From the NCBI RefSeq assembly GCF_003334355.1, contig NZ_QOWP01000069.1: a stretch of DNA of 4,303 bases; one strand, written 5' to 3'. The notes beneath the pieces are model-generated. The model saw only the letters and a list, made by a program, of their open reading frames with translations. It did no database searches and was not told the origin of the DNA. Shown in pieces: positions 769 through 4,099 of this stretch (the first letter of the stretch is position 1; each line of letters starts with the position of its first letter). Source of the stretch: Escherichia coli (lineage in GTDB: Bacteria; Pseudomonadota; Gammaproteobacteria; Enterobacterales; Enterobacteriaceae). Position numbers and translations under genes: made by a program.

Positions 769-835
769 ATCAAGTAGCGCGCATTCTATGGAGACATGCG
801 AGTTCATGCAACTAAAAAATTGCATAATTTGTTTT
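769..835 (-). promoter_or_regulatory. Promoter of the thrU-tyrU-glyT-thrT-tufB operon: -35 TTGCAT (806..811), 17-bp spacer, -10 TAGAAT (783..788), GCGCGC discriminator (777..782), AT-rich UP-like tract upstream
   Basis: Minus-strand reading is ...aaattatgcaattttttagTTGCATgaactcgcatgtctccaTAGAATgcgcgctacttgat followed directly by thrU. The hexamers are near-consensus with optimal 17-bp spacing. The GC-rich discriminator is typical of stringently controlled stable-RNA promoters. The A/T-rich sequence at about 812..835 is in the position of an UP element. Confidence 0.7.
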
Positions 836-1129
836 ATTGGTCACATTTTATGCGACACGATGAAGAAACAGCCGAACGGAGGGCAGATTAGCACACTTTT
901 TCAACATCATTGTGCTCAACAATGCGCTCCTGCTAAACCATAATTCTTTTTATCAGATGGAATATCTGTCACATTGCTTTTCAACGATAGCTTCCTGGCA
1001 GAGATTTTTTCTTATTATTCCTCCCCATCTGGTGTTACCCTCCTGCCCATTAACCCATTCAACAGAACTGTGACGCGCCATGGCAAATATCGCTTTGCCG
1101 ATAGAGCTATGACCGCCAGAAACATGCTT

Positions 1130-2080
1130 ATGAGTATAAAAGAGCAAACGTTAATGACGCCTTACCTACAGTTTGACCGCAACCAGTGGGCAGCTCTGCG
1201 TGATTCCGTACCTATGACGTTATCGGAAGATGAGATCGCCCGTCTCAAAGGTATTAATGAAGATCTCTCGTTAGAAGAAGTTGCCGAGATCTATTTACCT
1301 TTGTCACGTTTGCTGAACTTCTATATAAGCTCGAATCTGCGCCGTCAGGCAGTTCTGGAACAGTTTCTTGGTACTAACGGGCAACGCATTCCTTACATTA
1401 TCAGTATTGCTGGCAGTGTCGCGGTGGGGAAAAGTACAACCGCCCGTGTATTGCAGGCGCTATTAAGCCGTTGGCCGGAACATCGTCGTGTTGAACTGAT
1501 CACTACAGATGGCTTCCTTCACCCTAATCAGGTTCTGAAAGAACGTGGTCTGATGAAGAAGAAAGGCTTCCCGGAATCGTATGATATGCATCGCCTGGTG
1601 AAGTTTGTTTCCGATCTCAAATCCGGCGTGCCAAACGTTACAGCCCCTGTTTACTCGCATCTTATTTATGATGTGATCCCGGATGGAGATAAAACGGTTG
1701 TTCAGCCTGATATTTTAATTCTTGAAGGGTTAAATGTCTTACAGAGCGGGATGGATTATCCACACGACCCACATCATGTATTTGTTTCTGATTTTGTCGA
1801 TTTTTCGATATATGTTGATGCACCGGAAGACTTACTTCAGACGTGGTATATCAACCGTTTTCTGAAATTCCGCGAAGGGGCTTTTACCGACCCGGATTCC
1901 TATTTTCATAACTACGCGAAATTAACTAAAGAAGAAGCGATTAAGACTGCCATGACATTGTGGAAAGAGATCAACTGGCTGAACTTAAAGCAAAATATTC
2001 TACCTACTCGTGAGCGCGCCAGTTTAATCCTGACGAAAAGTGCTAATCATGCGGTAGAAGAGGTCAGACTACGCAAATAA
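1130..2080 (+). CDS. coaA: Pantothenate kinase (type I CoaA), 316 aa
   Basis: The ORF 974..2080 contains the CoaA sequence from [20 protein letters not shown]... to ...[12 protein letters not shown], with the Walker A P-loop GSVAVGKST. The recalled CoaA N-terminus MSIKEQ corresponds to the ATG at 1130, which is Met53 of the six-frame ORF. The 52 upstream in-frame codons are not preceded by any SD and are taken as untranslated leader. Confidence 0.92.
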
Positions 2081-2086
2081 TTTGCA

Positions 2087-2117
2087 GGGGAGCGAATACT
2101 CCCCTTTCTTATTTTTC
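2087..2117. terminator. Intrinsic terminator hairpin between the convergent coaA and birA genes (stem GGGGAG 2087..2092 / CTCCCC 2099..2104, loop CGAATA, then T-rich tract 2105..2117 on the plus strand)
   Basis: The sequence gcaGGGGAGcgaataCTCCCCtttcttatttttctg sits 7 nt after the coaA stop codon. The T-tract follows on the plus strand, so it terminates coaA. The other flank on the minus strand is only moderately U-rich, so termination of birA is likely weaker. The hairpin and T-tract overlap the birA stop codon at 2109..2111. Confidence 0.6.
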
Positions 2118-3074
2118 TGCACTACGCAGGGATATTTCACCGCCCATCCAGGGTTTTATTATTCCATCCTGCTCAAGTAATAAAGCCCCCTGTTTGTCTA
2201 TTCCGCGTGAAATGCCAAATATTTCTTTATCACCAATGATAAGTTTCACTGGGCGATTAATAAAATTATCCAGCTTTTCCCAGCGCGACAGATAAGGTGC
2301 CAATCCTTCTTGTTCGAAGAGTTCCAACGCAGCACGTAATTCACGTATTAGCATGACCGCCAACGTATTACGATCGAGATTGATCCCCGCTTCCTGCAGC
2401 GTGATCCACCCCTGATTAACGACACTCTCTTCAACACGGCGCATTGCCATGTTGATCCCGGCTCCAATGACTATTTGCGCCGCATCGCCAGTTTTGCCAG
2501 TCAGCTCCACAAGAATGCCTGCCAGCTTGCGATCCTGCAGATAGAGGTCATTAGGCCATTTGACACGAACTTTATCTGCTCCCAGCTTGCGTAATACTTC
2601 CGCCATCACGATACCGATAACCAGACTTAAACCAATCGCCGCCGCCGGGCCTTGTTCCAGACGCCAGAACATCGACAAATATAAGTTTGCGCCAAAAGGC
2701 GAAAACCATTTCCGCCCCCGGCGACCACGGCCAGCCTGCTGGTATTCTGCAACACAGGCATCGCCCGATTTAAGCTCTCCGATACGATCAAGAAGGTACT
2801 GATTCGTGGAGTCAATAACTGGCAGCACGGCTACACTACCGCCATCCAGCTGACCCAATATCTGTTCAGCATTAAGTAACTGGATGGGCTCAGGCAGGCT
2901 GTATCCTTTACCCGGAACGGTAAAGACATCAACGCCCCAGTCACGCAGTGTCTGAATGTGTTTATTAATAGCCGCCCGGCTCATTCCCAGCGTTTCACCC
3001 AACTGCTCGCCAGAGTGAAATTCACCGTTCGCTAACAGGGCAATCAATTTCAGTGGCACGGTGTTATCCTTCAT
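2109..3074 (-). CDS. birA: Bifunctional biotin-[acetyl-CoA-carboxylase] ligase and biotin operon repressor BirA, 321 aa
   Basis: The translation [50 protein letters not shown]... has an N-terminal winged-HTH region and the biotin-binding glycine-rich motif [12 protein letters not shown]. Length and sequence match BirA. An SD GGAGA (plus strand tctcc at 3082..3086) lies 7 nt upstream of the ATG. Confidence 0.95.
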
Positions 3075-4099
3075 GAAATTGTCTCCACTGCGCTCACTTC
3101 ACCTGATGCACCAATAAAGCGGACTTCAGGCTCAAGCCAGACATTAAATTTTTCACCCACTTTTTGTCTTACATGGTGTGCCAGTTGCACCACATCTTCG
3201 CTTTTTGCATTGTCTTCATTAATGAGAACTAACGCCTGTTGACGGTGCACCGCAGCCCCACCCATTTGCATCCCTTTTAGCTGGCACTGATCAATAAGCC
3301 AACCTGCTGCCAGTTTTACTGAACCATCCGCCTGGGGGTAATTTGGTGCTGTTGGAAATTGTGACAGTAATGCTTCAGCCGTTTCGGCAGATACAACAGG
3401 GTTTTTGAAGAAACTACCGGCATTGCCATTCACTTTTGGATCAGGGAGTTTGGTGGTGCGCATATGACACACCGCATTAAATACTTGCTGTGGCGTTACT
3501 GTTGTAGGATCCAGACGAGTTAAGTCACCATACGTTAGTACAGGTTGCCACTCTTTTGGCAGACGCAGACCTACGGCTACAATGGCGAAGCGATCCTGGT
3601 ATTCATGTTTAAAAATACTGTCGCGATAGCCAAAACGGCACTCTTTGGCAGTTAAGCGCACTTGCTTGCCTGTCGCCAGTTCAACACAATCAACATAAGC
3701 GCAAACTCGCTGTAATTCTACGCCATAAGCACCAATATTCTGGATAGGTGATGAGCCGACACAACCAGGAATTAATGCCAGATTTTCCAGACCAGGCATA
3801 CCTTCCTGCAAAGTGTATTTTACCAGGCGATGCCAGTTTTCTCCGGCTCCTACATGTAAATACCACGCATCAGGTTCATCATGAATTTCGATACCTTTGA
3901 TCCGGTTGATGATCACCGTGCCGCGATAGTCTTCCAGAAAAAGTACATTACTTCCTTCACCCAGAATAAGAACGGGTTGTCCTTCTGCGGTTGCATGCTG
4001 CCAGGCATTGAGTAATTGTTGTTCGTCTTCGGCACATACAATGTGCTGAGCATTATGATCAATGCCAAATGTGTTCCAGGGTTTTAAGGAGTGGTTCAT
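3071..4099 (-). CDS. murB: UDP-N-acetylenolpyruvoylglucosamine reductase MurB (FAD-dependent), 342 aa
   Basis: The translation [54 protein letters not shown]... matches MurB, with the FAD-binding domain at the N-terminus. The stop codon TGA at 3073..3071 overlaps the birA ATG at 3074..3072. Confidence 0.95.

Follow-up and report, generated by a model that had tools for sequence, protein, structure and literature searches.

Where translation of coaA, the gene for type I pantothenate kinase, begins in Escherichia coli is a question that its sequence raises in several ways: the reading frame stays open for 62 codons upstream of the annotated start, several in-frame ATGs lie close to that start, and the usual Shine-Dalgarno (SD) signal is hard to find. 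We asked whether the upstream frame belongs to the protein, which of the ATGs are used, and what the sequence around them is conserved for. The window, by which we mean the whole stretch of 4,303 bases that was analyzed, is the tufB-tRNA/coaA/birA/murB region of E. coli, and it is arranged as follows.

tufB and the tRNA genes thrT, glyT, tyrU and thrU (tRNAs 327-768), minus strand
1130-2080, plus strand, coaA, type I pantothenate kinase
2109-3074, minus strand, birA
3071-4099, minus strand, murB
After murB, at the window's far side, the end of an rRNA operon

The identity of coaA is secure. Its translation scores 480 bits against the NCBIfam model TIGR00554 (panK_bact), above the curated cut-off of 235, with residues 9-316 aligned to positions 2-310 of the 310-position profile. 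It contains the P-loop nucleotide-binding motif GxxxxGKS/T in the form GSVAVGKST, the solved structures 1ESM, 1ESN, and 1SQ5 are of this same protein, and the RefSeq annotation, which agrees with the assignment, places the start at ATG1130. Positions 769-1300 are at least 99% identical in 5,357 of the 5,421 complete E. coli genomes that hold them. For comparison across species we used coaA and its flanks from the 80 closest loci listed, which represent 80 other Enterobacteriaceae species with protein identities of 90-100%; this set leaves out the more distant Enterobacterales (Yersinia, Serratia, Proteus), and the CoaA protein search was read from its best 120 matches.

The open frame upstream of coaA

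Two features delimit the upstream frame.

941-943, plus strand, in-frame TAA, upstream limit of the coaA open frame
974-1129, plus strand, 52-codon "extension" from TTG974 onward; on comparative evidence non-coding, comprising the predicted coaA promoter and 5′ leader

The first start-type codon of the open frame in the list of open reading frames is at 974, 52 codons before 1130. An earlier note on this DNA had described in-frame ATGs at 974, 1109, 1124, 1130, and 1154; the last four are where it placed them, and the codon at 974 is TTG. The note was also right that no stop interrupts the 52 codons from 974 to 1130, and the opening in fact continues back to the TAA at 941-943. An open run of 62 codons is mildly unusual, somewhat longer than expected by chance, as it occurred in 3% of 20,000 shuffles of the intergenic region (P about 0.03), the median for the shuffles being 12 codons. 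In part, the frame stays open because a pyrimidine-rich conserved block at 1005-1050 can hardly hold plus-strand stops.

Comparison with relatives gives a clear picture. Across the 80 closest species the length of the upstream open frame ranges from 2 to 83 codons, most being below 25, and within the genus Escherichia itself an in-frame TGA at the position of 1064 cuts the frame of E. albertii to 21 codons. The region upstream of coaA aligns across species in patches only, and the conserved block and the ATG are separated by 55 to 104 nt, the species differing mostly by numbers not divisible by 3. The coding-type conservation in 974-1129 that the earlier note proposed to look for across Enterobacteriaceae is absent, the frame being interrupted in close relatives, and neither the frame nor the residues of an N-terminally extended CoaA (368 aa from 974) are conserved. 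When the 368-residue translation was scanned with TIGR00554, the profile ignored the extension and aligned to residues 9-316. E. coli strain 1442 (NZ_CP184048) carries a 1,254-bp ISEc52 element at 999-1001, flanked by a GAG target duplication; the element lies within the "extension", two bases before the conserved block, and leaves both the block and coaA intact.

If the extension were translated, some or all of CoaA would start at TTG974 or ATG1109 and gain 7-52 residues in E. coli. The length of the open run (P about 0.03 in shuffles), the 368- and 424-residue models that gene callers gave for E. coli-like sequences, and the counterparts of ATG1109 in many genera speak for this possibility, which we nevertheless regard as extremely unlikely. 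In-frame stops occur within 2-22 codons in most genera as well as in E. albertii, and in several genera a stop directly precedes the counterpart of ATG1109, so that in those genera a start at that codon could contribute no more than 7 residues. Neither candidate pairs well with the 16S 3′ end: the value for 974 is -3.3 kcal/mol, with a spacing of about 11 nt to the start codon, and that for ATG1109 is -2.1 kcal/mol. The insertion at 999-1001 is tolerated, the TIGR00554 model does not cover the extension residues, and, if the promoter predicted below is right, 974-1047 would be absent from the mRNA. A six-frame N-terminomics search contains no upstream coaA start in its list (PMC13245402). Taken as a whole, the comparison indicates that 974-1129 is outside the protein, is stop-free in the coaA frame by accident in E. 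coli, and comprises a putative promoter region and a variable 5′ leader. The upstream frame of coaA should be left unannotated.

A conserved block and predicted promoter

The features proposed for the region upstream of the coding sequence are as follows.

1003-1056, plus strand, near-invariant non-coding block, proposed core promoter of coaA, which a further binding site may overlap
About 1012-1017, plus strand, weak predicted -35, TTATTA
1033-1041, plus strand, predicted extended -10, TG-T-TACCCT (sigma-70 scan and conservation)
About 1048-1050, plus strand, predicted transcription start, placed from the predicted promoter
1049-1129, plus strand, predicted 5′ untranslated leader, poorly conserved and indel-rich

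The block is made up of a T-run with TTATTATTC, about 5 variable nucleotides, and then ATCTGGTGTTAMCCTCCTGCCCATTGTCC. Its identity is 90-100% over the 80 closest Enterobacteriaceae species, against 20-50% for its flanks, and it lacks a third-position pattern, so it is not coding. It is present as a single, unannotated copy in the 5,421 E. coli genomes. Shimwellia retains its core, and Pantoea does so with changes. A metagenome scan with the core 18-mer placed coaA directly downstream, on the same strand, in 107 of 120 matches.

A simple sigma-70 scan returned TG-T-TAMCCT as the most consistent plus-strand promoter prediction, ranking in the top 5 in 51 of the 80 closest species. The extended -10 scores 4.8-5.8 bits, compared with 10.2 for the thrU promoter found on the other strand by the same scan. 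Among 60 distinct block sequences from 85 loci, the TG at -15/-14, T-12, A-11, and T-7 are invariant, which matches the extended -10 pattern, and variation is seen at positions -13, -10, and -9 and at two bases of the adjoining CTGG. Our literature search found no mapped coaA transcription start, and 1048-1050 is a prediction; it corresponds to roughly 4175107-4175109 on the minus strand of U00096.3, a conversion that Table S2 of the N-terminomics study matches to within 1 nt. On these grounds we lean toward a weak coaA promoter that would start transcription near 1048-1050, giving a leader of about 80 nt and leaving 974-1047 untranscribed with coaA. A basal promoter leaves the near-invariance of the discriminator, the start region, and the T-run without an explanation.

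Several other readings of the region were tried and rejected. Pairing of the block with the 36 nt that precede the start codon gave duplex energies no better than shuffles over 77 distinct sequence pairs (mean z 0.05; 4% at p ≤ 0.05). A search of 760-1250 for known RNA families in Rfam returned chance-level matches (E of at least 1.1, bits far below the gathering cut-offs), and the fold of 1049-1200, as a candidate structured leader, is not better than shuffles (z = -0.37). On the minus strand, a candidate small ORF (AGGAGG, 10 nt, ATG at 1028-1026) has ATT in place of its ATG in Klebsiella, Raoultella, and Pseudescherichia, and the stretch shows no third-position variation; a minus-strand promoter within the block was predicted inconsistently, in 11 of the 80 closest species, by the same scan that finds thrU at 10.2 bits. 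The C-run of a possible sigma-32 -10 (CCCCATCT, 1023-1030) lies in the variable 5 nt of the block and is no conserved feature. As for a FadR/GntR operator (TGGT-N3-ACCA), CTGGTGTTACC occurs once, but its right half is ACCC or ACCT; the FadR-like left TGG is itself variable, with A in place of G1032 in 3 sequences and C in place of T1030 in 1, the -10 positions adjoining it never vary, and a literature search for a link between FadR and coaA found none. An upstream ORF coupled to coaA through the ATGA overlap at 1130-1133 has no start codon in its frame after the TGA at 1110. Lastly, a PurR-like box, GCAAACGTT, in codons 5-8 is a half-site only and is broken in the Citrobacter freundii group and Buttiauxella.

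Two N-termini of CoaA

Four features of the start region enter the analysis from here on.

1124-1126, plus strand, in-frame ATG two codons before Met1 (ATG CTT ATG), assessed by cross-species counts
1130-1132, plus strand, Met1, start of the long form (316 aa) according to annotation and experiment, no SD
1139-1144, plus strand, AAAGAG in codons 4-5, very weak SD-like motif 9 nt before ATG1154 (pairing and conservation)
1154-1156, plus strand, Met9, the second start, short form of 308 aa (peptide MTPYLQFDR; PDB 1SQ5)

ATG1130 and ATG1154 are in frame and 24 nt apart. The TRAINSPOTTER study (Nucleic Acids Res 2026) isolates initiation-derived E. coli N-termini by deformylation-assisted N-terminomics, and row 65 of its Table S2 gives coaA with two in-frame starts (PMC13245402). 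The annotated ATG is represented there by a peptide of residues 2-17 from which the initiator Met has been removed, and the ATG eight codons downstream by the peptide MTPYLQFDR, residues 9-17 (PMC13245402, Table S2). The PDB chains of E. coli pantothenate kinase likewise have 316 residues (1ESM, 1ESN) or 308 residues corresponding to 9-316 (1SQ5), and because the 308-residue chain was crystallized, the short form is a folded protein. The pair of starts that the earlier note mentioned is thus documented in print, and the outcome it had set against its own proposal, a single N-terminus at Met1, is not what the table of that N-terminomics study reports. Dual initiation at Met1 and Met9 is real and already known. 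A literature search found no ribosome-profiling initiation data for coaA. Song and Jackowski (J Bacteriol 1992, 174:6411) reportedly described two products, of about 36.4 and 35.4 kDa, and assigned the two starts by N-terminal sequencing; UniProt P0A6I3, the entry for E. coli CoaA (panK, rts), is reported to list a long and a short isoform.

The short form could in principle arise without internal initiation. Proteolysis of the long form between Leu8 and Met9 is conceivable in that the first eight residues are outside the conserved core and could be trimmed, but we consider it very unlikely: the new N-terminus falls exactly on the Met of an in-frame ATG in an accessible region, and in Shimwellia the ATG at the Met9 position is the sole start able to give the enzyme. 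Song and Jackowski are said to have attributed the short form to the second start after N-terminal sequencing. The method that detected it, moreover, enriches N-termini derived from initiation (PMC13245402). We give almost no credence to a second transcript that starts within the first codons and lacks Met1. A weak promoter-like match is present in E. coli (score 5.0; -35 ATGACC at 1109-1114, -10 GAGTAT at 1132-1137), and its -10 position ranks in the top 5 in 15 of the 80 closest species, yet it scores low, its -10 is missing the important T at -12, its occurrence among species is inconsistent, and it would leave a leader of about 10 nt.

ATG1124 deserves separate consideration as a working third, minor start (MLMSIK...) that might be the main one in some lineages. 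Of 81 sequences, 66 have ATG and 2 have GTG at position 1124, so that one or the other is kept in 68, and the intervening codon is frameshifted in one species only. The opening energy of the site is low (9.1 kcal/mol), many database models are 318 residues long, and in Atlantibacter, where the Met1 codon is AAA, ATG1124 is the sole ATG upstream of Met9. On the other side, it has no SD, it is replaced by AAG in 11 Kosakonia sequences, and it is out of frame in Superficieibacter L055. Table S2 of the N-terminomics study lists the Ser2 N-terminus of E. coli CoaA and no N-terminal peptide for ATG1124 (PMC13245402), and since the Ser2 N-terminus can come from Met1 only, this argues against ATG1124 as the main start. 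We judge a role for ATG1124 to be quite unlikely.

The start region: SD pairing, accessibility, and synonymous constraint

SD pairing was computed between the 20 nt before each start (-20 to -1) and the 3′ end of 16S rRNA. At ATG1130 it amounts to +0.2 kcal/mol, which is no pairing, against -6.4, -6.3, and -4.3 kcal/mol for birA, tufB, and murB, which served as controls from the same window; the absence of an SD at Met1 that the earlier note reported is therefore borne out by comparison with the neighboring genes. At ATG1154 the value is -2.1 kcal/mol, from 3 bp in GAG, and the full set of 154 ATGs on the two strands of the window has a median of about -1.9 to -2.1 kcal/mol, so that on pairing alone the site is no better than chance. 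AAAGAG does stand at 1139-1144, 9 nt before ATG1154, as the same note had it, but as a "better SD" it is so in name only. A canonical SD (at least 4 complementary nt located 5-10 nt upstream) precedes neither Met1 nor Met9, and no AGG or GGA occurs within 3-15 nt of either AUG. AAAGAG is present in 66 of the 81 sequences, including 13 of the 14 that lack Met9; being equally kept there, its conservation is not creditable to initiation at Met9.

The start region reads AGAAAC AUG CUU AUG AGU AUA AAA GAG CAA ACG UUA AUG and is A-rich. Opening energies over -15 to +15 are 8.0 kcal/mol for Met1 and 7.5 kcal/mol for Met9, the third and second lowest among the 20 ATGs of the coaA mRNA (mean 11.8, sd 3.1 kcal/mol). 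Since A-rich, SD-less starts make up 192 of the 806 E. coli starts mapped in the N-terminomics study (PMC13245402), a start site of the coaA type is ordinary.

Synonymous entropy in 81 coding sequences is lowest at codons 2-12 (rank 1 of 267 windows), with AAA used at codon 4 in 100%, GAG at codon 5 in 96%, CAA at codon 6 in 94%, ACG at codon 7 in 91%, and TTA at codon 8 in 89% of the sequences. Past Met9 the constraint relaxes abruptly, and entropies of 1.0-2.0 bits are reached at codons 10-13. GAG, CAA, and TTA are less common synonymous codons in E. coli genes. With synonymous variation at its lowest here, the nucleotides between the two AUGs appear to be selected as nucleotides. We infer that selection acts on the start region as a whole, for low structure, A-richness, and perhaps a weak GAG contact.

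Sequences without Met9 still retain AAAGAG, TTA, and CAA.

These observations can be joined in a simple model. Translation starts at two in-frame AUGs 24 nt apart, neither with a real SD, and both held in an A-rich, weakly structured stretch that seems constrained beyond the needs of the protein. Ribosomes would load at this stretch without SD help and at low efficiency, picking either AUG; both the SD-independent loading and the low efficiency are what we infer from the pairing and accessibility values. The products are a 316- and a 308-residue enzyme, identical except for a tail that the conserved kinase core does not include.

Redundancy or tuning of the two forms

The two starts are distributed unevenly among species. 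Met1 occurs together with Met9 in 63 of the 81 sequences and with Thr9 in 14, and the remaining 4, all from Atlantibacter, have AAA at codon 1 and retain Met9; these four keep an ATG two codons upstream of codon 1. The 14 Thr9 sequences belong to the Citrobacter freundii group, Buttiauxella, Franconibacter, and one Superficieibacter, and 8 of them carry Met at codon 7 instead. Thr9 is also found in the Erwiniaceae Pantoea and Mixta. In Shimwellia the corresponding sequence is GTG GGT AAC AGA GAG TGA ACG TTA ATG, and the TGA at codon 6 is present in two independent assemblies; because of this in-frame stop, the enzyme can start at the Met9 position only, and AGAGAG is found before that start at the same spacing. 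Different lineages have thus lost either Met1 or Met9, so the two starts look redundant rather than specialized. The comparative evidence, on which this point was judged, gave no indication of distinct functions for the two forms, and the 316- and 308-residue forms are probably functionally equivalent. Given that lineages can dispense with either start and that the family profile does not reach the eight residues, the pattern suggests that the short form is a tolerated side product of a start region that lacks an SD and holds more than one AUG, and no specialized isoform.

The contrary view is that dual initiation is adaptive, with AAAGAG acting as a functional SD for Met9 and selection acting on the ratio or the sum of the two forms so as to fix how much of the rate-controlling enzyme is made or what its properties are. 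The strongest synonymous constraint of the gene does fall at codons 4-8 and end at Met9, with GAG, CAA, and TTA prevailing (96%, 94%, and 89%) despite being less common synonymous codons; Shimwellia keeps AGAGAG at the same spacing before its sole start, and Met9 is present in 67 of the 81 sequences. Yet AAAGAG is kept equally in lineages without Met9 (13 of 14), and its pairing is 3 bp only. Thr9 in Erwiniaceae and several Enterobacteriaceae, together with the loss of Met1 elsewhere, means that neither form is indispensable, and the first eight residues lie beyond the family profile. Even when the enzyme is strongly overproduced, CoA rises a few-fold only; feedback inhibition by CoA, and not the amount of enzyme, dominates control of the pool. 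We find adaptive tuning unlikely. The best joint explanation, which we hold with considerable confidence from the comparisons above, is that 974-1129 is non-coding and that coaA has two SD-less starts that are redundant rather than specialized.

Relation to known systems and significance

For E. coli, the alternative initiation described here concerns the same gene (coaA, also panK or rts) and the same two starts as known before, and nothing differs. What is added is the reciprocal loss of Met1 and Met9 across species, the synonymous constraint on codons 2-8, and the finding that the longer upstream frame is, on comparative grounds, non-coding. The IF2 isoforms of infB, and clpA and speA, as listed in the N-terminomics study (PMC13245402), resemble coaA in that two in-frame AUGs of one mRNA are used to give N-terminal proteoforms, but in those genes the forms are functionally distinct and tens to hundreds of residues apart in length. 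The coaA forms, unlike these, are 8 residues apart, outside the core, and either start can be lost in evolution. With the SD-independent A-rich sites of the same study (PMC13245402), coaA shares A-runs upstream and downstream and a low opening energy; it is distinguished by two, possibly three, close AUGs in one accessible window, the mechanism being the one we propose above. Against public protein databases, which hold at least 8 lengths for essentially the same gene (308, 311, 313, 316, 318, 325, 368, and 424 residues), the value of the result on the coaA starts is mostly a tidying up of annotation.

The conserved block is the more interesting feature and the one lead worth an experiment. 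Like sigma-70 promoters with an extended -10 (TGn) and a poor -35, it has an invariant TG, T-12, A-11, and T-7 and a weak predicted -35; it differs from them in that about 50 nt are near-invariant, including the discriminator, the start region (CCTCCTGCCCAT), and the upstream T-run. This invariance far exceeds the need of a basal promoter, which is here a predicted one. To our knowledge, the transcriptional control of coaA is poorly described. Pantothenate kinase controls flux into coenzyme A, so what determines its level matters in practice to metabolic engineering and to antibacterial work. We put forward, tentatively and with more doubt than belief, that the block may be an undescribed control element beyond the basal promoter, either an operator or a promoter sensitive to growth rate or the stringent response, serving coaA in Enterobacteriaceae and Erwiniaceae, and that together with it an SD-less window with two to three redundant AUGs, at least one of which is required, may constitute a conserved design.

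Translation Start of coaA

The start of coaA, which encodes type I pantothenate kinase, is annotated inconsistently among public databases: among the best 120 proteins listed in our search, near-identical genes carry models of 308, 311, 313, 316, 318, 325, 368, and 424 residues. The 368-residue model corresponds to the extension from position 974 (a TTG) that the earlier note had described, and several of the 308-residue models derive from genomes that possess Met1, the annotated start at ATG1130 (loci L209 and L210). The start region was compared in 81 sequences, E. coli and 80 other Enterobacteriaceae species, and is marked by one motif:

1124-1132, + strand: RTG CTT ATG, kept in 68 of the 81 sequences

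The first ATG of this motif lies 5' of the annotated start, yet the motif is retained, and in the same comparison the 8 nt preceding Met1 are strongly conserved. In Atlantibacter (L033, L039-L041) the Met1 codon is AAA, which leaves only the upstream ATG (position 1124) and Met9, the second in-frame start. In Shimwellia (1477-1503 in L083; also L084) the Met1 position holds GTG; four sense codons come next, then a TGA that ends 6 nt 5' of the sole usable ATG, at the Met9 position. The arrangement could reflect a mini-ORF positioned to allow re-initiation, or could simply represent a decayed long start.

Codons 5-9 of coaA (window 1143-1157) read GCAAACGTTAAT, which matches the left half and center of the PurR operator consensus at ∼10 of 16 positions. 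Sequences of the Citrobacter freundii group and of Buttiauxella disrupt the match, so the likeness is probably due to chance.

Farther downstream, the birA start codon overlaps the murB stop codon within a 4-nt ATGA (window 3071-3074). Such a stop/start overlap is the usual arrangement for translational coupling and applies to the birA/murB operon.

Upstream Region of coaA

The features of this region are as follows:

783-813, - strand: promoter of thrU-tyrU-glyT-thrT-tufB, TTGCAT-17-TAGAAT, found at 10.2 bits
1003-1056, + strand: conserved block of ∼50 nt, 90-100% identity across 80 Enterobacteriaceae species
Between block and coaA start: leader insertions in L038 and L047 (Franconibacter), L020-L028 (Kosakonia, Phytobacter), and L054 (Buttiauxella)

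The thrU promoter has a GC-rich discriminator, with an A/T-rich tract just upstream (window 814-930), and a peak of NtrC binding in the spacer between coaA and thrU is listed in a genomic SELEX study (PMC8743547). The leader insertions are lineage-specific, 20-50 nt long, and contain inverted repeats; in Klebsiella and Raoultella the leader is much shorter, and no common structure was seen.

In E. coli strain 1442 (L002, NZ_CP184048), a 1,254 bp copy of ISEc52 (IS3 family) with a frameshifted transposase is inserted at window 999-1001, 130 nt 5' of the coaA start, with GAG as the target duplication. Two bases separate its end from the conserved block, and the TTGACC present in its outward end could be a source of a -35 element.

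The block itself occurs once in E. coli, without annotation, its position is always just 5' of coaA, and its core is retained in Shimwellia and Pantoea. Its predicted role is best read as that of an extended -10 promoter (TG-T-TAMCCT, 1033-1041). Judged from the alignment, its conservation far exceeds what a basal promoter would need.
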